IMG/VR virus record: IMGVR_UViG_3300044695_001827
Coordinates: 1 to 31,266 of that record
Origin: a virus
Taxonomy: Duplodnaviria; Caudoviricetes
Length of the DNA: 31,266 nt
Strand: one strand, 5' to 3'
Shown: positions 6,492 through 28,242 of the stretch, one piece after another
How positions within the stretch are numbered: position 1 is the stretch's first letter
Layout of the letters: each line of letters begins with the position of its first letter
Position numbers and translations under genes: made by a program
Notes under the pieces: model-generated
Told to the model about the DNA's origin: nothing
The model's database searches: none
What the model saw: the letters and a program-made list of their open reading frames with translations, nothing else

Positions 6492-6604
6492 TCCGTTGGG
6501 TCAAAAACTTTCTCCGCTCGTACTCTGATTTCTATCAGTACGAATGGAGAAAGGTTCCACCGCCTAACTGGCGGAGTTCTCGCGGCGGAAGGGAATACTG
6601 GTGA
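6488..6604 (+). CDS. 38-aa Trp-rich small protein (absent from ORF track)
   Basis: MIRWVKNFLRSYSDFYQYEWRKVPPPNWRSSRGGREYW; ATGA overlap with the upstream stop and GTGA overlap with the downstream start. Confidence 0.65.
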   Translation: MIRWVKNFLRSYSDFYQYEWRKVPPPNWRSSRGGREYW

Positions 6605-8436
6605 AAGAAGAATTCATCAAGGCATTGCAGTCAGGGGTCAACCTCGCGAACGAAGACAAGTTCGATGAGGCTGTCTCTAAGTTGGAACCATTGGCAGACC
6701 TGCATCAGTCCATGGTGCAAGCGTTGATACAGCGCGGTCGTTGCCATTGGGAGATGCGCCGTTGGGACAAAGCCACTGAGGACTTCCGTAAGGCAGGACT
6801 CATGGCTCCCGACAACATCGATGTCAAGTGGACAATGTCCTTGATGAACCTTCAACAGGGCAACTTCATCGAAGGTTGGAAGACTTTCGATGACAGATGG
6901 GAGTCGAAGAAGTTCGACAGCCCTAGGCTCAAGACCAAGAAGCCGCGATGGCACAAGGGCAGCGGGTACAAGGATGTACTCGTCTGGTCTGAACAGGGTA
7001 TCGGTGACCAGATTCTTTACTGCTCTTTGCTGCGCGAAATCAAGAGCGAGACTCCGGTGGTCACCGTCATGGTCGATGCGCGTCTGATCCCTCTCTTCGA
7101 AAGGTCTATGCCGGGGATAGACTTCATCCCGCAGAACGCTTTCGTGAGCGACATCGACGCACAGATTCCCATGGGAAGCCTCGTGTCTGAGTTCATCGAA
7201 AGCAAGGATGACATTGCAAGGGTACGCAGCGATGCGTTCCTGATCGCCGACTATGCCCGTGCCAACGAGATACGAAGTGGTTTAAACCTTGCCGAAGGAG
7301 AAAGGCTGGTCGGCTTGTCATGGATTTCTGGTGCGCCTCGCATCGGGAACCATAAGTCTGTCGCTCTGGAGGACATGCTCCCCATCCTTCAGATACCCAA
7401 TGTGAGGTTCGTCAGCCTCCAGTACGGGGATCACTACCAAGACATATACGAACTGGAGAAGAAGCATGGCATCCGGATCGAAGTGGTACCAGAAGTTGAC
7501 AACACCACCGACATTGATGGCCTCGCCGCACTCATCACGGCCTGTGACTGTGTGGTCTCGGTCAGCAATGTCACGGGTCACATATCAGGGGCAGTCGGAA
7601 CTCCAACCTTCCTCTTGGATTCCAACAAACTCTGGTACTGGAACAACACCAGAGGCAACAGGAATCTCTGGTATCCCTGCGTCAAGACCTACCGTAAATC
7701 ATACGCAACAGCACCGTGGACCACGCAAGTTGCTGACATTGCGGAAGACCTGAAGAGGCATCTGGTTCCGGGACACAGGCCGACATTCGTGTTCTTCAGG
7801 ACAGGCACTGAAGAGCAGATCTGGCACACCCGCATATTCGTGAAGTCTCTTCGTGAGACCAACCCCGATGCGCGGATCATCATGTGTACGGATTCCAAGA
7901 CCCCCATCATCGACGGCACAGAAAGATTCGAACTCGACTCTGACTCCACAGACTTCATGGAGTATAGGCTGCGAATCTACGCTGCATTGGGACTGGACTA
8001 CCCTGCGATGTATCTGGATGACGACATGGTCGTATGTTCAGAGATATTCCCAGACGCATTGCTTGGAGATCAAGAAGCATTGTTCTGCGAGAGATCGTTT
8101 AATCGCGATGCTGAGTTCAACCCTGACATCAAGGGTCTGCACTTCCATGAATACAAAGGCAAGACGCTGTATGAAGTGTTCCCGTATCTAGCCTGTGCAA
8201 CGGTGACGAAAGACCATACGGTCTGGGGGGAACTGCTTGGCATCTTGGATCACATCGACCCCAAGTATCGTAAATGGTACGGGGATCAGGAGGCCATGAA
8301 GATATGGTCAAAGATGTTTAAAAGGCACGGTGTGCTGAGTGAAGAAAGATATGCTTGTCTCCCGGAACATCTTGGTAACAAAGACCCCAAGATTATCCAC
8401 TACAAGGGAAACAGAAAAGATAAGATGAAAGGCTGA
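6601..8436 (+). CDS. TPR + GT-B (GT9-like) glycosyltransferase fused to a C-terminal GT-A (GT8-like) domain
   Basis: N-terminal TPR helices; EQGIGDQI, VGLSW, FVSLQYG, DCVVSVSNVTGHISGAVG (TPR-GT9-like); then YLDDDM (DxD), YGDQEAM and IIHYKG (GT-A). Confidence 0.85.
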   Translation: MKEEFIKALQSGVNLANEDKFDEAVSKLEPLADLHQSMVQALIQRGRCHWEMRRWDKATEDFRKAGLMAPDNIDVKWTMSLMNLQQGNFIEGWKTFDDRWESKKFDSPRLKTKKPRWHKGSGYKDVLVWSEQGIGDQILYCSLLREIKSETPVVTVMVDARLIPLFERSMPGIDFIPQNAFVSDIDAQIPMGSLVSEFIESKDDIARVRSDAFLIADYARANEIRSGLNLAEGERLVGLSWISGAPRIGNHKSVALEDMLPILQIPNVRFVSLQYGDHYQDIYELEKKHGIRIEVVPEVDNTTDIDGLAALITACDCVVSVSNVTGHISGAVGTPTFLLDSNKLWYWNNTRGNRNLWYPCVKTYRKSYATAPWTTQVADIAEDLKRHLVPGHRPTFVFFRTGTEEQIWHTRIFVKSLRETNPDARIIMCTDSKTPIIDGTERFELDSDSTDFMEYRLRIYAALGLDYPAMYLDDDMVVCSEIFPDALLGDQEALFCERSFNRDAEFNPDIKGLHFHEYKGKTLYEVFPYLACATVTKDHTVWGELLGILDHIDPKYRKWYGDQEAMKIWSKMFKRHGVLSEERYACLPEHLGNKDPKIIHYKGNRKDKMKG

Positions 8437-8471
8437 TTCCAACCAACAGATATCCAAGTCGGAGGTGAAAC

Positions 8472-8711
8472 ATGGATACCGAAAGAAAGCCTGAGTACAG
8501 CAAGGACAGGTTGAACCAAGAGATACGAGATTTGTTGCGCGAGAACTCGCTGCTCAAGAACTCGCTGTTCATCAAGGACAAAGAAGCCACTGTCCTTCAA
8601 GACAAACTGACGGAAGCCGACAGCACGATCAATGTTCTCAGCATCATGCTTGGAGTTGTGCTTCTCATGTTCATTGCTGTGTTGTTGTTCACTGTGCAAT
8701 GGTGGAGGTGA
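8472..8711 (+). CDS. coiled-coil protein with C-terminal transmembrane helix
   Basis: GGAGGTG RBS; heptad pattern followed by a ~20-residue hydrophobic stretch. Confidence 0.75.
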   Translation: MDTERKPEYSKDRLNQEIRDLLRENSLLKNSLFIKDKEATVLQDKLTEADSTINVLSIMLGVVLLMFIAVLLFTVQWWR

Positions 8712-8715
8712 AGTC

Positions 8716-8949
8716 ATGAGAAAAATTAACGACGGTGGCCCGGCGTTCCCAAGCACGATTCAATATTTTCCAGACGACAAGAACGCGAACGAAGAGCAAG
8801 GCATGACTTTGCGGCAGTACTACGCGGGTCAGGTCTTGATAGGGATAATGGCTAACCCCAATTCCACGGCAGTCACATCCGATACGATTGCAGCATGGTG
8901 CTTCAAAATGGCTGATGCCATGCTCAAGGCGCGGGAGGTGAAGCCGTGA
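8716..8949 (+). CDS. conserved small phage protein (GGPAFP...GMTLR family)
   Basis: INDGGPAFP, GMTLRQYYAGQ, MADAMLKAR; GGAGGTG RBS. Confidence 0.8.
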   Translation: MRKINDGGPAFPSTIQYFPDDKNANEEQGMTLRQYYAGQVLIGIMANPNSTAVTSDTIAAWCFKMADAMLKAREVKP

Positions 8950-9230
8950 GCGAGCACACACCGGGGCCGTGGATTGTTAACGGCCCGTCCGACGCCCTGT
9001 GGGTTTCTACGAGTGACTACCGTACAATCCTGCCACACACTACGGCCGATGCCCGCCTTATGGCCGACGCTCCGCGCCTGTACGATGAGAACAAGCGGTT
9101 GCGAGAGACCAACGCGGAACTGTTGGAGGCGTTAAAGCGCGTCAAGGAGACCCGTGTGTTCATCGGCGCTATAGCGCAGGGAATGATGGACAACGCCATC
9201 GCCAGAGCAGCACCGGAGGTGCAACCGTGA
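8946..9230 (+). CDS. small phage protein (HTPGPW family)
   Basis: HTPGPW...DARLMADAP...ELLEALK; GTGA coupling. Confidence 0.8.
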   Translation: MSEHTPGPWIVNGPSDALWVSTSDYRTILPHTTADARLMADAPRLYDENKRLRETNAELLEALKRVKETRVFIGAIAQGMMDNAIARAAPEVQP

Positions 9231-9562
9231 CCGACAACATCACCCTGCCCCGCGCTGTGGCTTTTGAGATGCTAGAGGCGTTGACTTGCGGCTCGTCAAT
9301 CCGTCATAAGTGCCAACATTGCGGCCAACACATCGGCAATTTCTACGCCGCCCTCTACGCCGCGCTTGCGGCTCCGGAGCCGGAGCCAACCGTCAAGGAA
9401 TCCTTGACTGTTGACGCCGCGCTTGCGGAGCCGGACGCCACGCCGAAGCCTGCGACGGATGAGCAGATATTCGACGCATACCAGAGTGCGCCCGACGATG
9501 ATTTCTATTACGGATGGTGCGCCGCCGAGCGGTTTCACGGGATCGGGGGGAGCAAGACATGA
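9227..9562 (+). CDS. hypothetical mosaic phage protein
   Basis: GGAGGTG RBS, coupled at both ends, CxxC motif, internal duplication. Confidence 0.7.
   Translation: MTDNITLPRAVAFEMLEALTCGSSIRHKCQHCGQHIGNFYAALYAALAAPEPEPTVKESLTVDAALAEPDATPKPATDEQIFDAYQSAPDDDFYYGWCAAERFHGIGGSKT
9357..9428. repeat. 15-bp direct repeats flanking a 27-bp palindrome
   Basis: ACGCCGCGCTTGCGG at 9357-9371 and 9414-9428; CAACCGTCAAGGAATCCTTGACTGTTG at 9387-9413. Confidence 0.85.
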
Positions 9563-9822
9563 CACGCGAGGACATCATCAGGATGGCGCGGGAGGCGGAG
9601 GATTACGTTGATACCATCTACGCTAAAGGCGAGTATCACCCCGGATGGTTGGAAGTCTTTAATGTTCGCTTCGCCGCCCTCGTCGCAGAGGCCGAGCGGG
9701 AGGCGTGTGCGAAGATTGCCGACAGCCAGATAAACAACACCGCCATCTTGTTGGTCAACCCCGGCAAATCTGCCGCAGCATGGGACATCGCTAACGCCAT
9801 CCGTGCAAGGGGGGATGCATGA
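9559..9822 (+). CDS. small phage protein (MTREDIIRMAREA / EREACA / IRARG family)
   Basis: Characteristic motifs; ATGA coupling. Confidence 0.8.
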   Translation: MTREDIIRMAREAEDYVDTIYAKGEYHPGWLEVFNVRFAALVAEAEREACAKIADSQINNTAILLVNPGKSAAAWDIANAIRARGDA

Positions 9823-10082
9823 AATCGTCCAAGCAAAAAAGAACTTGCAAAAAATGCCGCCAGATGTACTCCGCATCCGCATTCACTACACGCACAGGAT
9901 TTACTTGTAGGTGGTGTGCTGAACAAGTTGAGTTGCAAAAGGCGTATACGGATTGGAGTGCTGCATTCGCAGCAGCAGATAAAGCGTGGAAGGACGCATA
10001 CGAGGCTGATAAAGTGCGAGATGCCGCTGCAAAACGAGTGTCTAATCTTAACGCTACTATCCGTGCGAGGGGGAGCAAATGA
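9819..10082 (+). CDS. small protein with two CxxC motifs and IRARG C-terminus
   Basis: CKKC...CRWC; coupled at both ends. Confidence 0.7.
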   Translation: MKSSKQKRTCKKCRQMYSASAFTTRTGFTCRWCAEQVELQKAYTDWSAAFAAADKAWKDAYEADKVRDAAAKRVSNLNATIRARGSK

Positions 10083-10375
10083 CACGCGAGGAATTGGATA
10101 CGCTGTGGCTTCAGGCTGTTTACACCAAAGATGTATCAGATGAGCCGATGCTACGCGGCGATGAGGCACATAAAGCGGCTGTCTATCGCTTCGCAAAACT
10201 CGTCGCCTATTACGAACTCAGGACGCATCGAGCCACGGAAGATCGGCTTAACAAGTGGATGGACGAAGGTGAGCGCGTTTTCGGCAGTCGAGGATTGGGA
10301 ATGATGTTCCGACTTGGCGCTTGGTGGGCGGATAGACCTTTTAGAAAGAACAAGGACGCGAGGAAAGAGAAGTGA
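10079..10375 (+). CDS. hypothetical protein (MTRE-type N-terminus)
   Basis: GGGGAG RBS; ATGA coupling. Confidence 0.7.
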   Translation: MTREELDTLWLQAVYTKDVSDEPMLRGDEAHKAAVYRFAKLVAYYELRTHRATEDRLNKWMDEGERVFGSRGLGMMFRLGAWWADRPFRKNKDARKEK

Positions 10376-10602
10376 TGCACAAGTTAGAACGCACAGACAT
10401 CGTGCGTATAAAGCGCACGGGAACGATAGCCGTGATAACGGAAGTAGCCCATCCAAATCTTTCTAATCGCAATAGGGGCTGGGGTGATACATACGCCTTG
10501 ACCTTCCGTCACAGATCCAAGCAAAAATATGCATGGTACGAACGGGATGAACTGGAGTACATAGGTAGCGTGAAAGATCTGATTGCGAAGAGGGAGACAT
10601 GA
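10372..10602 (+). CDS. small SH3/KOW-like beta-barrel protein
   Basis: DIVRIKRTGTIAVITEV...YAWYERDELE pattern; coupled. Confidence 0.6.
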   Translation: MMHKLERTDIVRIKRTGTIAVITEVAHPNLSNRNRGWGDTYALTFRHRSKQKYAWYERDELEYIGSVKDLIAKRET

Positions 10603-11228
10603 AAGAAGTACAAGGTTGGTGGTTGCCTGATCAAGAAAGCCACATCACAACTTATTTCGATGCCATCAAACAGCCTGAGTATCAGCCGATACACCAGCAG
10701 TCTGTGGTTAAACACTGCAAGCAGTTCCGGACAGCCGTGGATATCGGAGCGCATGTCGGACTCTGGGCGCGTGGGCTGACAGAGAAGTTCGACAAGGTCA
10801 TCTGCTTCGAACCCTGTGACGAGTTCGCTGACATCCTTCCCCATAACGCACCCAAGGTGCATACCATCCATCGATGTGCTTTGGGTAAGGAGCATGGTTT
10901 TGTCGCCATGAACATCGCTCCTGACAACACAGGTTCCACCCATGTCGCAAGGGGTCAGGAAGGTATGACACCCATGTTCCCGTTGGATCGCTTCCAACTG
11001 ACGGACATCGACCTCATCAAGATCGATGTCGAAGGTTATGAACTGGATGTCATCAAGGGTGCCGTAGAGACCCTGAAGAACAACGACCCCGTGTTGATCG
11101 TGGAACAGAAGGACAGGTATGTGATACCTGAGGAAGGCAAGCATGCTGCGGTACGGTTCCTGATGAAGGATTTGCAGTACCGGATCATCGGGCGCGTGGT
11201 CGATGATTGGATACTGAGGAAGATCTGA
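10599..11228 (+). CDS. FkbM-family SAM-dependent methyltransferase
   Basis: AVDIGAHVGLW, VICFEP, IDLIKIDVEGYELDVIKGA, PVLIVE. Confidence 0.92.
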   Translation: MKEVQGWWLPDQESHITTYFDAIKQPEYQPIHQQSVVKHCKQFRTAVDIGAHVGLWARGLTEKFDKVICFEPCDEFADILPHNAPKVHTIHRCALGKEHGFVAMNIAPDNTGSTHVARGQEGMTPMFPLDRFQLTDIDLIKIDVEGYELDVIKGAVETLKNNDPVLIVEQKDRYVIPEEGKHAAVRFLMKDLQYRIIGRVVDDWILRKI

Positions 11229-11235
11229 GGCGGAT

Positions 11236-11442
11236 ATGAAGAAAGCCGAAACACCAGAGCCTCTTTATCGGATCAGTCTTCCGCCAGAAGACCATCACAA
11301 GGTGAGCGTGAGTAGGTATTACCGTGCTACACCTGACGATGCACGACTGATTTCGTATGGACCGTACCATCAGAAGTGCAATGTCCGCATCGACTTTGAT
11401 CTTGAGGGAAACATCTACAAGGTGGAGTGGCAGAACTCGTGA
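11236..11442 (+). CDS. hypothetical protein
   Basis: GAGG upstream; fills the gap between methyltransferase and glycosyltransferase. Confidence 0.6.
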   Translation: MKKAETPEPLYRISLPPEDHHKVSVSRYYRATPDDARLISYGPYHQKCNVRIDFDLEGNIYKVEWQNS

Positions 11443-12119
11443 AGATATTCATCGGTTGGGATAGCAGGGAGAAGATCGCCTATCAGGTGTGTCGAGCGTC
11501 CCTACTCAAACACACCACCGTTTCTCTTGATATCACCCCCATCAAGCAGAAGGACATGCGTGACCGGAACCTGTATTGGAGAGGTCATGACCCCATGTCC
11601 TCGACAGAGTTCACATTCACTCGCTTCCTGACCCCGTATCTTGCTGACTACAAGGGATGGGCTGTCTTCATGGACTGCGACTTCTTCTGGCGTGGGGATA
11701 TATCTACCGTCATGGATTACCGGGATCACAGCAATGCGGTCATGGTGGTCAAGCATGACTATGTCCCGAAAGAAACGACCAAGATGGATGGTGCTATCCA
11801 GACCCAGTACCCACGCAAGAACTGGTCATCTTTCATGCTTATCAATTGCGATCATGATCAGGTTAAACAGAATCTGACATTGAACACGGTGAACAAAGAG
11901 TCCGGTCTGCATCTGCATCGTCTTCAGTGGGCGACGGATGATTGCATAGGGAGCCTTCCCATTGCATACAACTACTTGGAGGGTTGGCACACCAAGGATG
12001 ATTGTCCTAACCCGTTGGCTGTCCACTTCACCCGTGGCGGTCCATGGTTCGTGGACTACATGGATGTCGAGTACGGTGATGAATGGATCAAGACATCAAG
12101 AGGGCTTGTCAATGAATGA
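11427..12119 (+). CDS. GT-A fold glycosyltransferase (CDI-like nucleotide-diphospho-sugar transferase)
   Basis: IFIGWDSRE, STEFTFTRFL, FMDCDF (DxD), YPRKNWSS, VHFTRGGPW. Confidence 0.88.
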   Translation: MAELVKIFIGWDSREKIAYQVCRASLLKHTTVSLDITPIKQKDMRDRNLYWRGHDPMSSTEFTFTRFLTPYLADYKGWAVFMDCDFFWRGDISTVMDYRDHSNAVMVVKHDYVPKETTKMDGAIQTQYPRKNWSSFMLINCDHDQVKQNLTLNTVNKESGLHLHRLQWATDDCIGSLPIAYNYLEGWHTKDDCPNPLAVHFTRGGPWFVDYMDVEYGDEWIKTSRGLVNE

Positions 12120-13252: not shown

Positions 13253-13637
13253 TATCTTCCACCCCGACAGCCTCCTCCTGTGTGCTGTCAACCGGTGAAG
13301 TCTCATAACCCCCAGAGGCATCACCCTTAGAGGGGAGATAATCTCTCCCCTTGTTTTTGTCCATCTGGCGGACAGTCTCAGCCAGCAGATCCATCTCAGA
13401 CAGTTTGGCGATACGCATCAGGGCTTTGGTTCCGTGGAAACCATGGGTTCCCCTATGGCAATCCACACACAGGGCGACCGTCAGGAAGTCGCTGGCGCGG
13501 TCTCCCATGCCATGCCCTGTGCGGATATGGTGAGCCTCCGTTACGCTGCTCTGGGGCTGTCCTAGGAGGCTACAGAGGGTACATGGGAGGGACTTCACCC
13601 TGCCCATGTAGTCACTCTCATGCTTACCCCGGCTCAA
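13170..13637 (-). CDS. HNH/treble-clef nuclease-like protein (DUF968/Ref-like)
   Basis: LPCTLC, EAHHIRTG, VALCVDCHRG..GFHG; ATGA-coupled to the giant gene. Confidence 0.8.
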   Translation of the reverse strand: MSRGKHESDYMGRVKSLPCTLCSLLGQPQSSVTEAHHIRTGHGMGDRASDFLTVALCVDCHRGTHGFHGTKALMRIAKLSEMDLLAETVRQMDKNKGRDYLPSKGDASGGYETSPVDSTQEEAVGVEDIKGGQTIQPRVPPRKRRQVRSGQTSPV

Positions 13638-16600
13638 TCGCCAATCCCCATGCCAGCCCTAGACGCAGCCCGTCTGTAACGCATATCAGCACGACGGATC
13701 ATTTGATACTTCTCAGCGGGTAAGTTCTGCCTAGACCATCGCATGAAGGCTTGCAGTTCCTGTTGACTGGGTGCGCTGCCGCCAATCTGAATTGGCTGAC
13801 GATTCCTTACTGAAGCACGGATGCTTGCCTCAACACGATCCCTTTCCTCACCACGAAGACCACTGACTGCCTTCCGAACCAACAACCTCGCACGAGCCGC
13901 ATCACCTTGCTGAAGAGCATCGGTGATGGCCTTGTTGACTGGGGTCATCGGAGTTCTGACAACCGCACCCGGAGCAGTGCGCTGTTTAAACTCTATCTCC
14001 ATGGCCTCGCTGTATCGTCGTCCGTATTCCCGAACCTCGCGAATTTCTTTCTGGGCAGCAAAGCGTCTGACCTCACGGGCATCCGACCCAATTGCATCCA
14101 TCGCGGCAAGGCCGATGCGCTTATTGGCGCGATAGAAAGACAGCGTGGTCTCTGCAATCTCATCGAGATCACGGGCTGTCATCTTCTTTTGGTCACGCAA
14201 TCTGTTGAAGACATCGATTACAGCATCGACAGATGCCAGTCCCGGAGGGCTGAACGGATTCTTGACGCGCTGCTGGTCCTGCCAGTCTTTGGCAAACTGA
14301 GCATAGTTCGCAAAGAAACCAAGGCTTCCTGCGGTCATGATGTTCTGCCATGCGCGGGAGAAAATCAGACTCCATCCTCTTGCGGTGTCTTCGTTCTCAA
14401 AAGCCTTCTTGATTTCTTCATCATCCGGACCCGGATCTCCGTATCCAAATGCTTCACGGATAGCACTGATTGCTTCACCACCAATGATTGCCGAACCCAC
14501 GAACCCAGCAACTCGCATAAAGTTCCTTGGGGTTGGATTGTCATAGAAGACCTTCAGGAAATGGTTGTAGAAGAACCGGTTCACCTGAGTTCCAAACTTC
14601 TGGTACTTCAACAAAAAACGACCAGCCGCGCTATCAATGAACACAGGAGTCATGTCAATGCTGTAAGAACCCTGAGGGACATTGACAGCACGGCGCATGA
14701 ACTTTTCGGTCTCCTTTCCAGCACCGTCTTCGAGTATCAGCGAATCGACATCAAGGTTCTCTCGTTTAACCCATTCGCGGAACCGCTTCACTGAATCATT
14801 TTCTGACCCGTTTCTTACATCATTCAAGAACGAATTAAGCCTTGCTCTAGCAGCCAGCATCGCTGACGATCTGACTATGTTCTCAGCGCCGTTGAATCCT
14901 CCAACGGTAAGCATGAAGTTGGAGAACTTGGCGAGAGCCTGAGATATCTTCTGTTCTTTCGAGAAGTACTTGTCAGCATCCATCTCAACATGGTCGTTGA
15001 GGATGTTCATGAAGTCTTTATTCAGAATGCCAAGGGTTGTTCCTTCATTTTGGACATTCTTCCAGTCAAGAACCAAGTTCGCATAAGACTTTGCTATCTC
15101 CTTGATGCCGAAATCTTGGACATTTGTAATGGTTCCACCGAGCAAGTTAAGGCTTGCGCTAACTGGGTTACCCAACTGCACCGCAGTAGCCAGAGAGTTC
15201 GCCCAATTCGCCATGTTGGTCAGTGCGTTGAATTGCTCTATCTCGTAGATTCTTTCCTTGATTGAATTGAGATAGTTCTGGGTCTCCTGATCACGGACCT
15301 TTGGAATGTTTTTATCGAACCATTCTTTCTGGAACTTCCCAATCGTTTGACCGAAGTTCTCAATCTGTGCAGTACGGCGCGACCACTTGCGTAGGTAACG
15401 GGTCGCCGCATCCCATGAATAGTCATAGAAGATTTCTGGAAGAGGCTCAGTACGAGCCTTCTCAACACCAGCGAAATAGTCCTGAGCGACTTCATCAGAG
15501 AACCATTCGCGAAGCAGATAGTTCTCTGCATCTCTAGTGGTTTCTGCAAGTCCTTCTTCGACCAATGAGTCAAGCAGAGACTGCCAAAGAACGGGGTCAA
15601 GGTCAGGATTCTGCATGACCTCCATGACTTCCCTGCGGAATGCGCGAGGGAAGAAGTTCCGGACAGACCTGATCGGTCTCCATTCGTTACGCTTCGCATC
15701 CCATACCCGCATGGGCTTGCCATCAGGGGTGCGTATGCTGGTGTTGATTTCGCCAGTCTGTCTGGCGATCTCGTTCCATGCATCAATCAACTGACGCTCA
15801 CTGTCAGTTGCCATATCAAGGATACTCTGAGCATCTTCTGTACGCCCGTTCTCACGAGCGCGGATGAACTCTTCGAATGTAGTCAGTGCTGCGGTTTTCC
15901 CACCAAGATCGATACGCTTAAACGCATCACGGATGATGCCGTTTGCAACACCAAGTCTTGAGGCATAGGTGTCGTAATAGTTCTCGATCCTCTTTGCCAA
16001 GTCATCAAGCCCAAGCCCAGACCGCAACTTGTCAGGAGCAGACTGGATCATCTGCACTACAATCCGTCTGGTAAGCGGAGCGATACGCGCACCAGAGATA
16101 TCTACTGTGCCATCAGGCTCTGTATCGCTGATGGTAGGGCCAGTGGGGGTGCCGATAGAATCTAAAGGCTGACCATCGTTCAATGCTTCAGCAGCACTGG
16201 TGTTGTCAGTATCGTTTGTAGGACCGGGTTGAGTTGGGCCTATCGGCGTACCGCGTCTACGAGCCTCACGCGCAGCAGGAGGACGAGCCGCTTCAGCCAC
16301 TGGACCTTGTGGTGCAGCACCAATCCTGAGCCTTCCTTGATTTGGAATGACAAGCGCATCGCCATCACGCGCACGGTCATAATCCAAGAAGAATCCCTTG
16401 TACTTCTTGGCAGCATCTTCTGGTTTTGTGGTCTTGTCCTTGTTGGTCAAGCCGACAATCATGCCGATGCCGTCTTCCCGCTTGGGGTCCAAGAACCGCG
16501 CATCGTAGTTGTCACCGTCCCATACTTGGAACCGTTGTCCGGTGCGCTCATCAACCACGAAGTCAGGCATGTCCGTGCGACTGGTGAAAGCCATGGCGAC

Positions 16601-19600
16601 ATTCATGCCATTGTTCAACTGCTGAACCATTCTGTCCCAGTTGGTTTCCGGGTTCACAATGGTCTCGCCGTTGACGATCTGACTGGCTCCAGTAGAACTG
16701 TAGGTCAGATGATGGTTAGGCGCGATAGAGCGGGTCGGCAACTTCGTGTAGTCATAGAACATCACATTCGGGAATGCATTGATGATCGCCGCAAATGTCT
16801 GCGGCCTGAAATCAGATGTGACATTCAAGCGAATGGCAGGCTGATAAATCTGCTTGGGCTGCATGACTTGCTCACCAGCCTCATTCTCAACCTGCTCGAC
16901 CCCAGTCTCAGAGTTCGACCACTTCTCAAACTTTGCAATCTCGTCGTACAGAACGATGGCAAAGTCTTCTGAGTTCTGAACAATCGCCTCTGTCTTGAGG
17001 TACTGAGACAGGCGCGGACCAGACTTGAACTGTCCCTCACCTCCGTACAGAAGGTTCTGACCAGAGGTCTCACCCAAGCAAAGACCTTCGCAGATTGCAG
17101 ACTTGGGGCAAGTCGAAAGGTTCTGTTCGTTTATACGCTGTGCGCTTGCCAAACCAAGACCCATAGAGGCAACGCTCTTGCCATCATAGGTAAGACCGTA
17201 ATCACCGATACGGGTCTTCTGCAACTTGCCGTTCTCGCCCATCAGCGTTCCGACATTGTGTTCCTTCTTCAGGACATCACGGGCTTGCTTGAGACGAGCG
17301 CGTTTCCCCTTGGCATCAAGGGCAAGGTACTTGGTAACAGAGTCTGAAATGCTGCGTTCGATGTCTACAAGTTTGGTGTCCTTGGAGAGCGCACGGGTAC
17401 GCGGAGCGTCAAGAGTGAAGAGTTTGGTCTGCTTCATCTTTTTGGCATAGGACTCACCCTCTGCCAATTGGATGAAGAAGTCCTTGCGACCGTCTTCATA
17501 TTCCTGATCAATGTGCAACAACGAAGGATCAACTTGGATCAGCACATTCGCGCCGTCCATTGGCTGATCGATGTTGCCCGGATTCTGCATGACCTTCGGA
17601 CCACTTGATTCGTTGGTCAGGTAGATGCGATTGCTAGTTGGCGTGGAACCCTTGAGGCGTTTGTCTTGAATGGTACGACGAGCCGCCTCATTGGTGGCAG
17701 GGTAGTACAGTGTAACGGTGCCATTCTTGTTGAGTGGCAAGCCAAGGATTGGGTCATTCTCCTTGCCCTTGGCAAGATCCTTAGCCTCGTAAGGCTTCTT
17801 GATGGATTGCCGTGCGACAGGAACGATGGGTTCCAGTTGCCCTTCTGAAAGATACGGAAGTTCCCCAGTACGATTAAGGTACTCCTGCGCCATGGCAGCA
17901 TCTTCTGGGGTAGACTTTGCCGGGAATTTTCGCGACTCCCGGATGCTGGGCGCAACTGTTTTCCGTTGCTTTAATTTTTCAACTTCAGCATCGTAAGCGG
18001 CGAATGCCTGCTCTTCATACTTAGTTGAGTTCGGCCCAAAAGTATCTTCTTTTAGAGTCTCGCGAATGTTTTCTCTACTAGAATCTATACTGTCTTGAAG
18101 ATCGCTGTAGTCTCTTTGAAAATCAAATGCAGCCTGTGCGGCCCTTCTAGCAAAACTTTCTACTTCCGAGATCTTCTCACGCTCTACTGCTTCCGCTGCA
18201 TCAAGTGCTGCGATTTCAGAATCAATTTCATCTAGAGTCTTTTCTCTGGGTACACGCGACTCCCGTTCAATCGGCGGAATCCCAAGTCTTTCTCTAGCCA
18301 CATTCCGGGCTGCGATATCTCTTTCTGGATCGACAGTCTGAATGGTGTGGACATACGCACCATACTGATTATCACGACGATCTACAGCGCGACGCGCACC
18401 GCCGATGGTGTTGGCTTGACCAACTACTTCGCCAGTACGACTGTTGACAATGTTGTAGGTTGGTTCTTTGCGCGACTCCCGGATGCTGGGAGTCAGGGGG
18501 CTGAAGTCACCATTGTTGCCGATAGCAGACTTAATCTGACCGGGGTCGAAGACGGCGAGGTTCTTCTGACCGCCCTCTTCCACGAACATGCTGTCATAGC
18601 CAAGTTCCCGAATGGCATCAAGGATGGGGGCATTGCCATCACTACCCTCGATGGTCTGCCAGTTACCCTGACCAATCTCTTCAACCATGCTGGCGGTGAT
18701 ATCCGCGCCATTGTCTCTGGCTCGTTTAACCACTGCCTTGATATCGTCTTTGTTGCCATAGTCCCATGGCTTTTCAGCACGGACATAGACAGGTATGAGG
18801 TTGGCTCCAGAAGGAAGTCTCTTCTGGATGGCATCCAAATAGCGACTGCTACTACCTCCTGCTGCGGTGTCCTTGAAGATTTTAAGCAAGCCGGGGCGAA
18901 TGGCTTTACCGGCAGACACTTCCGCTACTGCTTTGTCTCTCGCCTCAGCGACCCTGTCGTACAGACTTGGGGTGAAAGCAGATGATCTTTGCAGTGTCTC
19001 ATTCAGGGCATCGATGACCTGCTCATCACTCATGAAGTCAGTGAAGTTTTCGACCATGTAGTCTTGAGACAGTGCTGAGAACTCTTCAGCGAATCTGGGA
19101 CTACGAGTCAGGAACACAGACCCTGCTTGCTTGGGCTGGAACGCGGTGATGTCAGCAGCGGTTCCGTGGTAATAGACAAGCGGACGCTTGCTGTTGTCTA
19201 CAGCCTTACTGCTACCAAACCAGTTCCAGAAGTTCCGCAACCCATCCATAGTGGGACGGGTCGGGGTGTTGAATACCTCCGGCCCTTCGAAGCCTGAGTA
19301 AATGAGGCGGCCTTCAGAGTCCCTTGTCGGAACTTCCTGCTCGTCCACAGTGATCTTGGGCGGCACCGGATCAATGGTTGATCTGGATTCCCTTACTGCA
19401 TTTAAACGCAAACTGTTGATAGCAGGGACAGCCACAGCAGGGGTTTCCTGCTGAACCTTCTGAACCGTTTCTTGCCGGAACTGATTGCGATCTTGCGGGG
19501 TGGCAAAGAGCCTTTGAACGCGATCTGGCAACTGACCCTGTTCCGCCAAGCGTTCTTCCGTAGCACGGAAGGTGCGAATACGACCGCGCTCTCTGGCTCC

Positions 19601-21583
19601 GACAGCACCCTGCTCAAACCGACGAATGACATCTTCGTAGGTCTGGAACCCTGCACCGGTCAGGGCATTCTTGGTCTTGTCGAAGAAGTTGATTGCCCGT
19701 TCAGACAGATTTCTAGGCTTACCGGCAACACGGGAAATGTTACCGGCTACATCCCGTATGAGATCTGCAACGCTTTCTTCAACCTGAATGACCTTGTTCT
19801 GATCGGCATAGTTCTCTTGGGCAATCTGTAGGTAGGTCTTATCCGTACCCGGCTTCTTCAGATTGCTGGCAGCACCCTCAAGGTTCTTCCACTCAGAACG
19901 CTTCCAAAGGTCTAGGTATCGCAGAGCATGCACTACCTCGTGACGGAGAACCCCTCTAAGGGCTTCCCGCCTCTGGTTGGTATCTAGGTTACCCTGCGGA
20001 TCTACAGCGTCTACAGCAAGGAATACGCGCCTTACAACGGGGTCGAAGAGACCTTCCGAGGTAAGAGCCTCGCCTCTACGGGTAAAGACCCTGTTGTTGA
20101 TGCTAAGACCAACATCATTCAGGCCAAACCCTTTCAGGGCATCAGAAAGAGATGACTGGAGAGGCTCAAGTTGCTTGATGACCTCTGCTCTTCCCCTTGT
20201 CGTATTGTTTAAACTTAACGATAGGGAGTCCGCTCTATCACGGCTATCAAGATCCTGTCCGTATTGGGTGCCGGTCTTGTCCGTGACAATGAACTTGGGC
20301 GCACCATCAATCGTCTTTTCCTCGACCTTGAACTCCGCATTGACAGGGATGTAATTGCCGATGGTGTCGTAGATTTTCTGTGCGTAAGCATCGCCATACT
20401 GGACAGGAGTGGCTTCTGTCTGCCCCGCGCCAATAGGTATCTTGTTGAGTTCCGGGGCGGAAATGCTCTTAGCCTTTTCGAATGCCTGATTCCGCAGTTC
20501 ATCGAGGATGTTGTTCTCAATCTGAGAACCCAACTCCTCGTTCCCACGGACACGCGCTTCAATGCGGCGTTGTGCAAAGTCTTGCACCCCAGCAAATGTA
20601 AGACCGATTCCTCCGCCAGCAATGCCAGCCTCAAGACCAATCAGACCGGCTGTGGTTGGATCAAACCCAGCCTTTGTACCTGCCGTCTGGGCAACATACT
20701 GACCTATCTCTTGGATTGCTTCAGTTCCACCTTGGATGGCGGTCTCACCAAGAATGGTTTCTGCTCTACCAAACCTTGCAGTAGCGAACTTCTCAAGTTT
20801 CGATTGCAATACAGCAGAAGCACCAGCAGCGGCAACATCAGCCACAGTGGCATCTTCGAAATTTCTGCCATCATTCTTTAGGCGTTCATTAAGGGTTTCA
20901 TTAGTCAACGAAACAATATATGCAGGCGCTGCATAAAGTGCTGATGCCATATCTGGAATAGATACAGCAAATCTTTCAAGCACAAACGGAACAACATTCA
21001 ACGGGTTATCAGCCAACTCCTTGAGTTGAGTTCCGTATGAATAATTAACCTTCTCAGATTCTTCCTTGAATCTTTCTGCTGCGCCTTGTAGACCCGGAGC
21101 AACAGCAGTCAACCCTGCCTTCACGCCACCAAGTATTGGTGATGTGGCATATGCAGTTTCGGGAATTGCAGAAGGAATCCTGCTAGTCCCTTCAAGAAGA
21201 TTGCCAAGTATGTCCTGCGCTCTTGATACGCCACCTACCAGAACATTGCTGGTTTTTCCTTCCTCTATTGCTTGTCTCTCAAGTTCGCCATATACGGATT
21301 GCAAAGGGGGTTCACTGACTGCCTTATAAGAAGCAGCCAATTGAGGCGTAACAGGTGCGCCGAACAGGTCTTGGAAAGATCTTCCTGCGCCTTGACCGGG
21401 AGTGATTGGCGCAGGACGAACTGGAGCAGCCTCTGTTTGAGCAGGCTCCTCTACGGGTCGTCCAATTTCCCACCAGTTCTGCTTCGCCTTATCTTCAGTA
21501 TCGCTTTCAGCAATCGAACCTTTTGCAGAAACGGTGTCAATGTCTTGGACGGGCTTACCAATCTCCCACCAGTTCGCAGACAT
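13634..21583 (-). CDS. giant polyvalent internal virion/ejection protein (2649 aa): zincin peptidase, ADP-ribosyltransferase, ART-like and GP88-like domains, helical C-terminus
   Basis: LRHEVVHAL...EESVAD (~19950-19770); YHGT / FLT / PVYV / GYDS / FDPGQIKSAIGNNG (~19340-18500); TCPKSAICEGLCLG, RLNVTSD, FYDYTK, DGDNYDARFLD (~17250-16385); last large gene of the virion module. Confidence 0.85.
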   Translation of the reverse strand: MSANWWEIGKPVQDIDTVSAKGSIAESDTEDKAKQNWWEIGRPVEEPAQTEAAPVRPAPITPGQGAGRSFQDLFGAPVTPQLAASYKAVSEPPLQSVYGELERQAIEEGKTSNVLVGGVSRAQDILGNLLEGTSRIPSAIPETAYATSPILGGVKAGLTAVAPGLQGAAERFKEESEKVNYSYGTQLKELADNPLNVVPFVLERFAVSIPDMASALYAAPAYIVSLTNETLNERLKNDGRNFEDATVADVAAAGASAVLQSKLEKFATARFGRAETILGETAIQGGTEAIQEIGQYVAQTAGTKAGFDPTTAGLIGLEAGIAGGGIGLTFAGVQDFAQRRIEARVRGNEELGSQIENNILDELRNQAFEKAKSISAPELNKIPIGAGQTEATPVQYGDAYAQKIYDTIGNYIPVNAEFKVEEKTIDGAPKFIVTDKTGTQYGQDLDSRDRADSLSLSLNNTTRGRAEVIKQLEPLQSSLSDALKGFGLNDVGLSINNRVFTRRGEALTSEGLFDPVVRRVFLAVDAVDPQGNLDTNQRREALRGVLRHEVVHALRYLDLWKRSEWKNLEGAASNLKKPGTDKTYLQIAQENYADQNKVIQVEESVADLIRDVAGNISRVAGKPRNLSERAINFFDKTKNALTGAGFQTYEDVIRRFEQGAVGARERGRIRTFRATEERLAEQGQLPDRVQRLFATPQDRNQFRQETVQKVQQETPAVAVPAINSLRLNAVRESRSTIDPVPPKITVDEQEVPTRDSEGRLIYSGFEGPEVFNTPTRPTMDGLRNFWNWFGSSKAVDNSKRPLVYYHGTAADITAFQPKQAGSVFLTRSPRFAEEFSALSQDYMVENFTDFMSDEQVIDALNETLQRSSAFTPSLYDRVAEARDKAVAEVSAGKAIRPGLLKIFKDTAAGGSSSRYLDAIQKRLPSGANLIPVYVRAEKPWDYGNKDDIKAVVKRARDNGADITASMVEEIGQGNWQTIEGSDGNAPILDAIRELGYDSMFVEEGGQKNLAVFDPGQIKSAIGNNGDFSPLTPSIRESRKEPTYNIVNSRTGEVVGQANTIGGARRAVDRRDNQYGAYVHTIQTVDPERDIAARNVARERLGIPPIERESRVPREKTLDEIDSEIAALDAAEAVEREKISEVESFARRAAQAAFDFQRDYSDLQDSIDSSRENIRETLKEDTFGPNSTKYEEQAFAAYDAEVEKLKQRKTVAPSIRESRKFPAKSTPEDAAMAQEYLNRTGELPYLSEGQLEPIVPVARQSIKKPYEAKDLAKGKENDPILGLPLNKNGTVTLYYPATNEAARRTIQDKRLKGSTPTSNRIYLTNESSGPKVMQNPGNIDQPMDGANVLIQVDPSLLHIDQEYEDGRKDFFIQLAEGESYAKKMKQTKLFTLDAPRTRALSKDTKLVDIERSISDSVTKYLALDAKGKRARLKQARDVLKKEHNVGTLMGENGKLQKTRIGDYGLTYDGKSVASMGLGLASAQRINEQNLSTCPKSAICEGLCLGETSGQNLLYGGEGQFKSGPRLSQYLKTEAIVQNSEDFAIVLYDEIAKFEKWSNSETGVEQVENEAGEQVMQPKQIYQPAIRLNVTSDFRPQTFAAIINAFPNVMFYDYTKLPTRSIAPNHHLTYSSTGASQIVNGETIVNPETNWDRMVQQLNNGMNVAMAFTSRTDMPDFVVDERTGQRFQVWDGDNYDARFLDPKREDGIGMIVGLTNKDKTTKPEDAAKKYKGFFLDYDRARDGDALVIPNQGRLRIGAAPQGPVAEAARPPAAREARRRGTPIGPTQPGPTNDTDNTSAAEALNDGQPLDSIGTPTGPTISDTEPDGTVDISGARIAPLTRRIVVQMIQSAPDKLRSGLGLDDLAKRIENYYDTYASRLGVANGIIRDAFKRIDLGGKTAALTTFEEFIRARENGRTEDAQSILDMATDSERQLIDAWNEIARQTGEINTSIRTPDGKPMRVWDAKRNEWRPIRSVRNFFPRAFRREVMEVMQNPDLDPVLWQSLLDSLVEEGLAETTRDAENYLLREWFSDEVAQDYFAGVEKARTEPLPEIFYDYSWDAATRYLRKWSRRTAQIENFGQTIGKFQKEWFDKNIPKVRDQETQNYLNSIKERIYEIEQFNALTNMANWANSLATAVQLGNPVSASLNLLGGTITNVQDFGIKEIAKSYANLVLDWKNVQNEGTTLGILNKDFMNILNDHVEMDADKYFSKEQKISQALAKFSNFMLTVGGFNGAENIVRSSAMLAARARLNSFLNDVRNGSENDSVKRFREWVKRENLDVDSLILEDGAGKETEKFMRRAVNVPQGSYSIDMTPVFIDSAAGRFLLKYQKFGTQVNRFFYNHFLKVFYDNPTPRNFMRVAGFVGSAIIGGEAISAIREAFGYGDPGPDDEEIKKAFENEDTARGWSLIFSRAWQNIMTAGSLGFFANYAQFAKDWQDQQRVKNPFSPPGLASVDAVIDVFNRLRDQKKMTARDLDEIAETTLSFYRANKRIGLAAMDAIGSDAREVRRFAAQKEIREVREYGRRYSEAMEIEFKQRTAPGAVVRTPMTPVNKAITDALQQGDAARARLLVRKAVSGLRGEERDRVEASIRASVRNRQPIQIGGSAPSQQELQAFMRWSRQNLPAEKYQMIRRADMRYRRAASRAGMGIGD
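17931..18490 (-). repeat. exact 20-bp direct repeats at module junctions (encode PSIRESR)
   Basis: CGCGACTCCCGGATGCTGGG (+ strand) at 17931-17950 and 18471-18490; partial copy CGCGACTCCCG at 18255-18265. Confidence 0.9.
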
Positions 21584-25689: not shown

Positions 25690-28242
25690 TTAAACGCTCC
25701 TCTGATAGGGACGAATCTGCTCAGTCGTTCCCATGGTTTTCTGTCGGATGTCATCGACAAGACCGTCGAAGAACGATGCGCCGTCTCCGGAGTATCCGCC
25801 GCCTGCAAGGGAGACCACATCAGCCGGGATGATGTACTCACCCGGAGACACGGCGACAGGGCGTTGGGTGCCGATCATTCCCTCGACAAGGTCATCCTGA
25901 CCGCCGCCCATACCCTCGACCATGCCATCGGTCTGCGCTCCCGGAACGATGTCCTGAAGGACTCGCTCACGAAGTTGCGAGAACACCTCCGGTCCATACA
26001 TCTCAACGAAGCGACTGATGATCTGGTCAGCGTTCTCAATCTCCCCACGGATAGCGGCAACAGTCATCTCAACGATGCTGTTCTCAGCGCCCATCTGGGA
26101 TTGATCGTCCATACCAGTCATACCACCTTCAGCGAATCCTTCAGTCATGCTGAATTCATCGAATGGGTTCTGGAAGGACGGCATGTTCTGAGACGGTGCA
26201 GATCTCTGCGAAGCCAACAGGCTCTCAAGCGAGGACAGTCGCTCCATGATGGGGTCGAAACTTACCTGCGGAGTACCACGGCTTTCGATGGAGGCGAGTC
26301 GCTGTTCCAGACCAGAGAGGTCGAAGGAAGGTTGAGGACGGCTCTGCAAAGCACCAATGCCTGACTGAAGGTCAGCAATCTGCTGCTGGATGGGAGACAG
26401 ATCAAACTGTGGGATATTCACCTGCGGGGCAGGAAGGTTCTCGAAACGAGTATTCAGTCCAGCAATCTGACTCTCAAGATTGGAAAAGTCAGGCGGGGTG
26501 TAGGAAGGGATTCTGCTGTAGTCGAACTCAGGCATGGGTCGAGACTCGATAGCCGCAAGACGCTGCTCAATTGGTGAGAAGTCAATTTGTCGATTACCAA
26601 TTGACCCGACACCGGTCTCAAGACCGCTCAGTCTGTCTTCGATCATCGACATATCGAACTGCGGAATCCTGTCGTAATCGAACTGCGGCATGGGGCGCGA
26701 TTCGATACTTGCCAACCTGTCCTCGATGCCGCTGAAATCAAACGGGGTGTAAGCAGGAATCCTGCTGTAGTCAAACTCAGGTATGGGTCGCGATTCGATA
26801 GCCGCAAGACGATCCCGGATTGGATTGAACTGGTTGTTAAGCAGTTCTTCCATGATGGACCTATCGAAACCACCCTCGTTGAAGTCAGGGGTTCCGCCCG
26901 TGTAAACGGGCATATCCATGTCTCCTCTTCCCGGCCTGCCCGTGAAATCAGAAACATCGTCAGCCATTCCGCCTCTTCCCGGACCGCCTCTGCCGCCCAT
27001 GAAGTCGCCATAGTTGCTCAGATACTCATCCAAGAAACCGCCATATCCCGGTCCCATGATGGGCTGATTGAAGTCAGGTCTACCACCCGGAGGGGTTCCG
27101 CCCGGAGGTCTAGTTTCATCAATAGGTTCCGGAGGAAGTGCTGGATAAAAGTACTGGACCTCAGGAGCAACACCAGCGAGATACCCTTCGCCGCCTACAT
27201 CCAATGCGCTGTACGAAGACGCAGGGGGAGGTACAAATCTAGGTCCGCGCAGATCCTCTTGGACACTTTTTGCAACAGGGAGGCCTGAGAACCTCATGGC
27301 GTTCAACATGTCCTCGTTGATAGCCGGACCACCTTCGGCAAAACGCTCAACCATACCGCCTGCTGCATACCCGCGACCGGGATATGCGCTACGAACTTGG
27401 TTAAACACATCCGACATCTGACCCCGGATACGATTCTTCTCTGCCTCCTGCTCCTCTTCGTAGGCTCTGGCACTACCCTGACCAGCAATTTCTTGCTGAC
27501 GGGCCATACGACCAGTCTCACCCACATAGACAGGCAAGAACGATTCTGGCTTGGCAAGATTGCTGATGAACTGACCGGGCTGCTGGAACGGCTGCGCGAA
27601 ACGCTGTCCCGCTGTCATTTCAACAGGAGGAATCCTTGCAGCAGGCGAGAATGCATCCGGACTCATTGAAGCGCCAAATCCTTCGAAGACATCTCCCACC
27701 GCAGAAGGTGCGGCCTGAGAAGCGATATCAGCGACGGGGTTTATTGCGGAGCCGAAGCCTTCGGCAACTTGCGGGATTTGAGTGGCAAGTTGTGTAGTTG
27801 TATCAGCAGCAGCCTGAGTAGCCGCCTGAGTGCCTGCCTGAGCAACTTCGGTTACAGGCGTAGCCAATTTATCTAGTCCACCCAAGGCAGACCCGATACC
27901 AAACCCGGTGATGCCGGACATGATGCCCTGCTCAAGATCGCCTGTAACGGCAGTAGTGGCAAGGCCAGAGCCTATAGCACCAGCCAGCGCGGCTTTTCCA
28001 GCCAATGCAGGGATTGCCGCAGGCAACAAGGATGACCCTAGGAAAGACCCCAGCAGGGGGGCCAGAAAGGGCAGGAACGCCTCTTTGCGACCCGTCATGG
28101 GATTCGTGGTCAACTGCCCGGTTGGCGACATACGAGACAACATCTGAACCTCTATGGGGTTCAGGTGTACAAGTTCTGAGTCACCGAAGCGCCCGTACTG
28201 GGCCAGTTGGTCTGCGACTTTTGAATATGGGGCGTTATACAT
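25690..28242 (-). CDS. 850-aa putative virion-associated protein with conserved ends and central repeats
   Basis: N-terminal GRFGDSELVHLNPIE...TTNPMTGRKEAF, C-terminal GGGQDD...VSPGEYIIPADVVS, central RLAxIESRPxPxFD repeats; AGGAG RBS. Confidence 0.75.
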   Translation of the reverse strand: MYNAPYSKVADQLAQYGRFGDSELVHLNPIEVQMLSRMSPTGQLTTNPMTGRKEAFLPFLAPLLGSFLGSSLLPAAIPALAGKAALAGAIGSGLATTAVTGDLEQGIMSGITGFGIGSALGGLDKLATPVTEVAQAGTQAATQAAADTTTQLATQIPQVAEGFGSAINPVADIASQAAPSAVGDVFEGFGASMSPDAFSPAARIPPVEMTAGQRFAQPFQQPGQFISNLAKPESFLPVYVGETGRMARQQEIAGQGSARAYEEEQEAEKNRIRGQMSDVFNQVRSAYPGRGYAAGGMVERFAEGGPAINEDMLNAMRFSGLPVAKSVQEDLRGPRFVPPPASSYSALDVGGEGYLAGVAPEVQYFYPALPPEPIDETRPPGGTPPGGRPDFNQPIMGPGYGGFLDEYLSNYGDFMGGRGGPGRGGMADDVSDFTGRPGRGDMDMPVYTGGTPDFNEGGFDRSIMEELLNNQFNPIRDRLAAIESRPIPEFDYSRIPAYTPFDFSGIEDRLASIESRPMPQFDYDRIPQFDMSMIEDRLSGLETGVGSIGNRQIDFSPIEQRLAAIESRPMPEFDYSRIPSYTPPDFSNLESQIAGLNTRFENLPAPQVNIPQFDLSPIQQQIADLQSGIGALQSRPQPSFDLSGLEQRLASIESRGTPQVSFDPIMERLSSLESLLASQRSAPSQNMPSFQNPFDEFSMTEGFAEGGMTGMDDQSQMGAENSIVEMTVAAIRGEIENADQIISRFVEMYGPEVFSQLRERVLQDIVPGAQTDGMVEGMGGGQDDLVEGMIGTQRPVAVSPGEYIIPADVVSLAGGGYSGDGASFFDGLVDDIRQKTMGTTEQIRPYQRSV
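26190..26830 (-). repeat. intragenic tandem peptide repeats
   Basis: 26513-26562 and 26762-26811 match at 46 of 50 nt (offset 249 nt); about 8 related FD.S.IE.RL units. Confidence 0.85.

Follow-up and report, generated by a model that had tools for sequence, protein, structure and literature searches.

Why does a short peptide, RESR, recur along a giant viral protein that carries a peptidase, an ADP-ribosyltransferase (ART) and further domains on one chain? The question is raised by the window, by which we mean the whole 31,266-base stretch of DNA analysed, a virus record with a completeness of about 53% that is present in lake metagenomes. The giant protein is encoded by a single ORF of 2649 aa (13634-21583, minus strand). 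A sequence-only reading of this DNA had proposed that RESR is the cleavage site at which the protein's own peptidase releases separate anti-host effectors after ejection.

Genome setting and parts of the giant protein

The giant gene closes the virion module; the genes before it encode a virion structural protein (phrog_3287) and a DNA ejection protein (phrog_4287, E 2.6e-7; 519 aa in the window). The complete relative G001 (60,335 bases, with terminal repeats) has the same gene order and carries terminase, portal and major head genes. The giant protein is predicted to be an ejection protein, and from gene position alone, in an uncultured phage, we infer that it is packed into the head and ejected with the DNA. 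It also shows each feature testable here of the phage polyvalent class, as defined by Iyer, Burroughs, Anand, de Souza and Aravind in 2017 (PMC5512222). Disparate activities lie in one polypeptide (peptidase, ART-PolyVal and GP88 within 2649 aa, with ASCH and other domains in relatives), and the gene stands among the late virion genes of a terminase-portal phage, as seen in the window gene order and in G001. No cultured phage matched the window peptidase or the window C-terminus.

Several neighbouring genes deserve mention in their own right. A virion-module protein of 850-940 aa (window 25690-28242, minus strand; L002:2155-4710; L003:354-3185) has conserved ends, a variable Pro-rich low-complexity middle and no family match. 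An 807-aa ejection-region protein (L003:4278-6701), equivalent in position to the window phrog_4287 protein, contains long repeats, both G[YF]QAG-type and Gln/Ala-rich. The early region of the window (6601-12119, plus strand) holds a TPR protein, an FkbM methyltransferase and a glycosyltransferase-like gene, and in G001 a GroES co-chaperonin gene (L062:12548-12904) comes immediately after the portal gene.

Table 1 Parts and junctions of the giant protein in window coordinates.
Feature	Position	Strand	Evidence or remark
N-terminal scaffold, aa 1-465	20189..21583	-	Gly/Ala-rich hydrophobic stretches, no junction tag; constant cluster C2
Zincin-like metallopeptidase, aa 466-712	19448..20188	-	HEVVH 19928-19942, downstream EE 19775-19780
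Junction 1, V-RESR (RESR from aa 731, 19393)	19382..19396	-	Peptide identity 1.0 (partly circular), synonymous difference 0.69, 9 genes
Cassette, ADP-ribosyltransferase (ART-PolyVal)	18485..19381	-	PF18760; cluster C0
Junction 2, I-RESR (RESR from aa 1035, 18481), main exchange point	18470..18484	-	43/43 ART-end anchors; L028 DNA break
Small cassette, 72 aa tag to tag	18269..18469	-	Cluster C7, 8 members
Junction 3, E-RESR (RESR from aa 1107, 18265)	18254..18268	-	Tag position and cassette clustering
Small charged cassette, 108 aa tag to tag, no family	17945..18253	-	Cluster C15
Junction 4, I-RESR (RESR from aa 1215, 17941)	17930..17944	-	DNA near-repeat of junction 2
43-aa mini-module	17816..17929	-	Aligns with tag-bounded module in distant P0052, P0053, P0060
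Junction 5, degenerate A-RQSI (RQSI from aa 1258, 17812)	17801..17815	-	Aligned relatives' tags
ART-like domain, possibly inactive, aa 1262-1428	17300..17800	-	Pro at His position; weak ESM matches
GP88 domain with Cx5Cx3C	16334..17299	-	PF17338, phrog_1617
Junction 6, A-REAR (REAR from aa 1772, 16270)	16259..16273	-	Opens constant C-terminal region; L028 DNA break
Constant C-terminal scaffold, 878 aa, no family	13637..16258	-	Clusters C1, C11

The N-terminal scaffold gave a weak match (E 0.002) to the N-terminal part of phrog_2206, a family of virion RNA polymerases; this was the only match to that family, and no RNA polymerase domain was detected in the giant protein. The C-terminal scaffold gave no Pfam, PHROG, NCBIfam or cultured-phage match, and some relatives carry an LPD38-type C-terminus in its place.

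The sequence-only reading had placed an ADP-ribosyltransferase, two small modules, an ART-like domain and a GP88-like domain between the tags. Pfam supports the first (PF18760, aa 925-1027, E 7e-17, 62.9 bits against a curated cut-off of 31.2) and the last (PF17338, aa 1468-1713, E 7e-18 to 4e-16), and the two small modules are present as well. The layout needs amending in two places, since the boundary between ART-like and GP88 domains carries no tag and an extra 43-aa module (aa 1215-1258) had been overlooked. The ART-like assignment itself is ambiguous. Its ESM features reached 0.91 to Arr/PARP clusters, but the recognition score fell below threshold, Pfam gave no ART match for this second domain, and Pro replaces His in 14/14 close copies, whereas distant homologs have His. 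The small cassette at 18269..18469 had no Pfam or PHROG match, and the C15 cassette occurs without C7 in P0018. The Cx5Cx3C cysteine cluster of GP88 could be the binding site of a metal or an Fe-S centre. Queries of the PDB by sequence, made with GP88, cassette C4 and the peptidase profile, returned nothing useful.

The tag in the window protein and among its relatives

RESR is the most repeated 4-mer of the giant protein, and its recurrence after the HExxH zincin domain was found as the sequence-only reading had described it, with 4 copies compared with 0.07 expected from composition. Among 2000 shuffles, one RESR occurred in 143, two in 1 and three or more in none. When the word was not preset, some 4-mer reached at least four copies in 54 of the 2000 shuffles (p ~0.03). 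At this level a single sequence can only be suggestive, so the case rests on relatives.

A peptidase-region search yielded 63 long homologs, and the tag is carried by P0001-P0041. When 42 proteins were cut at their 166 tags (P0005, identical to the window, was left out), the pieces formed 30 clusters, of which 6 were terminal and 24 internal, and these occurred in 31 different arrangements with constant ends. Cassettes vary in order, number and neighbours, with ART behind GP88 in P0014 as one example; the tag is kept in orthologs while the intervening cargo swaps, as the proposal had anticipated. Tag-blind ends of full-length BLAST alignments were chosen to avoid the circularity of tag-based cutting. 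Within 5 aa of a tag lay 31% of 3458 such ends, compared with 3.9% at random, and their distribution (the ends are not independent) peaks at the tag's last Arg. The breakpoint signal was weaker in a more diverse set, where 11% of alignment starts were within 5 aa of a tag versus 3%. With the conserved end of ART as an anchor, I-R-E-[SA]-R came next at 43/43 sites in 37 close proteins.

The earlier proposal had made position at module boundaries a test of itself, and the tags do lie within Pro/Ala/Ser/Thr-rich linkers: these four residues make up 47% just upstream of the tag versus 27% in cargo, and aromatics are halved. Modules down to 25-43 aa are still tag-bounded. Besides the ART-like/GP88 boundary, a tagless boundary was seen in the fused C6+C10 cassette that forms cluster C9. 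The degenerate RQSI and REAR, which had also been listed as tags, proved to be true junctions. Relatives have RYSI (P0039, P0074), KFSL (P0052, P0053) or KYSI (P0060) at the position of RQSI, and at REAR (junction 6) the DNA identity between L028 and the window breaks, from 25/60 matches before the tag to 57/60 after it. At junction 2 the same pair goes from 56/60 matches before the tag to 13/45 after it.

P0004 and P0001 lack exactly 180 aa between junctions 2 and 4, and the residues flanking that block are identical to the window at 306/307 and 560/560 positions. Cover over the block also falls more than 20-fold in 2/4 lake runs (X8, X16), where depth at 17945-18480 is ~1-9 versus 150-200 on both sides, so that the window's form is a minority there. 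Contigs of X8 and X16 end at 17944, and loose ends of contigs from both runs lie at 16279. Since no explicit joint across the missing block is listed among the lake-run contigs, X8 and X16 show low cover and contig ends rather than the joined form. In the X11 and X14 runs the block (17945-18480) is evenly covered. Ten listed runs, X11 and X14 among them, contain 0.79-0.81 of sampled words, near the share expected without the block; in two RNA runs the share was small. Taken together, lake populations appear to carry forms both with and without the block.

Most cassettes had no Pfam, PHROG or NCBIfam match. Those for which no family match gives a name include C10 (P0029, P0030, P0031, P0041), C22, C16 (P0026, P0029), C4 (L003:12635-13945), C8, C17 and C23. 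One of these has a conserved HDxFGH...EE and one has GHEGRHRA, which we take to be ParB-like; several share a W-Y...D-x-W pattern and are presumably DNA glycosylase-like. C12, a tag-bounded piece of 59-68 aa in P0018, P0021, P0022, L036 and L037, resembles a duplicated start of the C-terminal scaffold and is likely a recombination trace at the last tag.

The peptidase and the wider tag family

The HEVVH motif occupies aa 548-552, and alignments A1-A3 show no variation at H548, E549, H552, E602 or E603. HExxH is intact in 209/209 homologs covering the site, under a profile that favours such matches; the downstream EE is nearly always present in them, and no natural peptidase-dead homolog occurs among these 209. 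An AF2 model built from 56 rows (pLDDT 85, pTM 0.82) has a helix at 8-20, strands at 27-31, 46-49 and 54-58, and helices at 70-91 and 132-148. This fits the zincin-like MPTase layout of a three-stranded sheet with one helix before it and two after. It superseded a first model from 24 rows, which had a pLDDT of 54 and made the Foldseek search meaningless. Foldseek on the 56-row model gave no match at E<=0.001. The top VIA matches were mostly zincin folds at a modest Z of 4-6 (acel_2062, PPEP-2, PPEP-3, the lethal-factor protease domain, PprI, ArdC, Wss1 and selecase). No model of this peptidase clade exists in Pfam, PHROG or NCBIfam. The HExxH zincin domain named in the sequence-only reading is thus borne out by motif and predicted fold, and the peptidase looks catalytically intact in sequence and model.

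Searching with the peptidase profile gave 1,728 clusters (50% identity) at E<=0.001, of which the best 150 were listed. A diverse set of 121 proteins, each of at least 1800 aa with more than 1100 aa after HExxH, was used for the wider comparison; these homologs were picked by a profile favouring intact HExxH, and all co-variation among them is confounded by kinship. In the cargo zone of these long proteins, YSR and FSR ranked among the 3-mers with the strongest enrichment. The pattern [RKLM][EYF]S[RL] occurred there 189 times versus 36 in shuffled sequence, compared with 31 versus 25 upstream and 23 versus 29 in the C-terminal part. These patterns indicate a far broader tag, x-[FYE]-S-R, spread through the family, of which RESR is the version found in one clade; the sequence-only reading had missed this. 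At least one tag was found in 97/121 distant homologs, and 24/121, with intact HExxH, had none by the pattern used.

The form of the tag changes across the family. Its second position accepts E, Q, Y, F and L, and the Glu share of tags drops with peptidase score (24/27, 21/51, 19/50, 8/131 and 0/8). A sister group has I-[LM]-E-S-R. A distant clade with the same ART and ART-like/GP88 cassettes has I-R-[YL]-[SND]-L-R at 12/12 anchored sites. At equivalent junctions relatives carry Tyr or Phe in place of Glu, and P0076 and P0078 hold RESR and RYSR within one protein. On a peptidase tree of 51 rows, whose deep branches are long and unsure, the E-type tag persists across swaps of the C-terminal scaffold. 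Tag similarity was compared with the similarity of the protein's parts in the 76 of the 121 proteins that have at least two tags. The coefficients, which kinship confounds, were 0.29 for the peptidase (0/500 permutations), 0.13 for the N-terminus and -0.03 for the C-terminus, and the peptidase value was 0.24 with peptidase-proximal tags removed. For the last tag alone, the peptidase gave 0.13 versus 0.10 for the C-terminus, and 0.14 versus 0.16 among homologous C-termini. Peptidase residues co-varying with E versus aromatic tags (14 versus 41 proteins) were clade markers only.

Readings of the tag and comparison with known systems

Could the peptide be functionless, and the tag no more than a site of DNA recombination or a leftover from the copying of cassettes? 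Codons were compared in 73 distinct tag contexts from 28 genes, once 8 repeats of a context and 14 ORFs that were duplicates or unrelated had been removed. A shared DNA version does exist: CGGGAGTCGCGT accounts for 15/73 contexts, junctions 2 and 4 of the window (aa 1035 and 1215) are identical at 24/27 bases, the block between them is cleanly missing in near-identical strains, and the synonymous difference at junction 2 is lower (0.32). Against this, the 73 contexts use 45 different 12-mers, with all six Arg codons at the first Arg, both CGN and AGR codons for Arg, and both TCN and AGC codons for Ser, and copies within one gene are no closer in codons than copies between genes (0.39 versus 0.40). 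At junction 1 the peptide is invariant although 69% of codon pairs differ and the preceding linker has 52% identity (only nine genes, picked for at least two tags, which makes the identity values partly circular). Because the peptide is kept while codons vary among relatives, selection acts on the protein, as the sequence-only reading had argued from the copy at 19382-19396. That copy (aa 731) indeed has AGG GAA TCC AGA, unlike the others, but the remaining three RESR copies (aa 1035, 1107 and 1215) have CGGGAGTCGCG in common, which had gone unmentioned. A purely DNA-level origin is therefore very improbable, and as sole cause it appears largely refuted. The frequency of the shared version and the near-identity of junctions 2 and 4 indicate that the site is probably also microhomology for exchange, and the shared DNA version probably also serves cassette recombination. 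This likely double role as a DNA exchange point was missed by the earlier reading.

If the peptide is what matters, it may be cut by another protease: a phage head protease as the virion matures or, after entry, one of the host. The sites of the T4 and phiKZ head proteases are hydrophobic-X-Glu, which the tag resembles, and Arg or Lys comes next in 35/73 tags, which would make a dibasic site. We regard this as quite unlikely, because no prohead protease was detected in the complete G001: a PF04586 match is absent, none of the 43/54 ORFs scanned is a stand-alone prohead protease, and the protease-named PHROG matches map to the capsid part of a 302-aa head protein. RE[SA]R is confined to the giant protein among the ORFs of G001 and of the window, and the G001 capsid and scaffold-region proteins are without it. 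Moreover, relatives have Tyr or Phe instead of Glu at these junctions, and overall the form of the tag appears to track the zincin sequence. It is likewise fairly unlikely, though somewhat less so, that the tag is bound and stays uncut, for instance as a docking site for the zincin-fold domain or for ejection machinery that orders, unfolds or threads modules while the protein is packed and ejected, the zincin then acting on a host target. Related HExxH-bearing virion proteins are described as delivered whole (PMC5512222), the metallopeptidase of phi24B gp47 was assigned to peptidoglycan by its authors in the preprint (10.64898/2026.04.10.717836), and the second tag position admits five residues (E, Q, Y, F and L), a loose requirement for a protease. 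Docking fits poorly with one tag per boundary in unfolded linkers, with tags bounding even modules of 25-43 aa, and with the lack of tag excess in scaffold parts, which also need ejection.

We hold it rather probable that modules are cut free at the RE[SA]R tag by the protein's own predicted zincin, likely after injection. What is observed is the tag, its position at module boundaries, protein-level selection on it, exchange exactly at it, and an intact HExxH...E. The tagless homologs (24/121), the tagless boundaries and the coexistence of E and Y forms in one protein count against self-cleavage, as do the near-equal coefficients of peptidase and C-terminus for the last tag, the lack of any peptidase residue that sets E-type apart from aromatic-type proteins other than by common descent, and the uncut delivery described for related HExxH proteins. 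Under self-cleavage, the giant protein would be packed whole into the head and then ejected, and the zincin would recognise hydrophobic-R-E-S-R in an unfolded linker and cut in or beside the tag. Cutting would free the ART, three small modules and the ART-like/GP88 pair from the N- and C-terminal scaffold, with expected pieces of ~304, 72, 108, 43 and 514 aa, a peptidase-bearing N-terminal part and an 878-aa C-terminal part. We lean towards cleavage after ejection, since the cargo, flanked on either side by a constant end, would depend on these ends for packing and delivery. Each recombined cassette would join in frame with its own release site; since one short coding sequence closes every cassette, the tag likely supplies the microhomology for in-frame recombination. 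The cargo may act against the host. Extended to the whole family of uncultured phages (1,728 clusters, 50% identity), we give an even chance to the proposal that it injects a self-processing magazine of effectors, in which the tag is both zincin cut site and DNA exchange point and has co-evolved with the protease from Y/F-S-R to E-S-R. In that case, a domain of any kind entering by recombination at a tag would acquire its own release signal.

The tag is useful in other ways. It splits many unannotated giant proteins into real modules, and it exposes as candidate enzymes of host takeover or anti-defence at least 24 cassette types, most of which lack a family match. It also points to a route by which phages reshuffle injected effectors inside one lake population, and a new sequence-specific protease with its tag could serve as a laboratory tool.

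Among known systems, LPD38-type C-termini are shared between some relatives of the window protein and polyvalent proteins of cultured phages (PTXU04 gp25, Vibrio phage 1.232.O gp28 and Pag-Yong1). The peptidases of these three are of other types (HExxxH in gp25 and gp28), and none has a run of the x-[FYE]-S-R tag. PTXU04 gp25 is described as needed for efficient infection (10.1101/2023.09.18.558157). It and the Vibrio 1.232.O protein were rejected as peptidase-free controls, as both have HExxxH. The Planktothrix phage Pag-Yong1 (OL906435) encodes, at L065:3-8321, its large polyvalent protein with two HExxH and four ESAR (twice as RESAR); ESAR may be its own junction tag, in a cultivable phage.

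Coliphage N4 virion RNA polymerase and phi24B gp47, which is treated as an ejection protein (bioRxiv 10.64898/2026.04.10.717836), are likewise giant ejection proteins that are encapsidated and contain an HExxH or metallopeptidase domain. Unlike our proposal, cutting into cassettes is not reported for them in the accessible parts of the sources; the available text of the N4 polymerase structure paper notes HExxH and reports no self-cleavage (PMC13434306). A domain of this kind is also present in N4 virion RNA polymerase, ArdC and TraC1, all described as packaged or transferred uncut (PMC5512222). The closest likeness is to the polyvalent proteins of that same paper, which are large, multidomain and encoded in the late virion module, with an HExxH...E peptidase, ART-PolyVal cargo and, as in some relatives of the window protein, an LPD38 C-terminus. 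There, autoproteolytic release of domains by the MPTase was already proposed in 2017, with an explicit analogy to RNA-virus polyproteins. Unlike for the window family, the accessible parts of PMC5512222 give no cleavage-site motif ('linker' has 0 matches in the main text) and no cassette exchange at a fixed peptide, and a literature search, largely of papers outside subscription, found none describing such a tag. From sequence comparison, what appears to be new here is a defined junction tag that recurs across the family, takes a clade-specific form and marks the points at which cassettes are exchanged, and this tag makes the 2017 prediction of self-cutting by polyvalent metallopeptidases directly testable, with exact predicted fragments.
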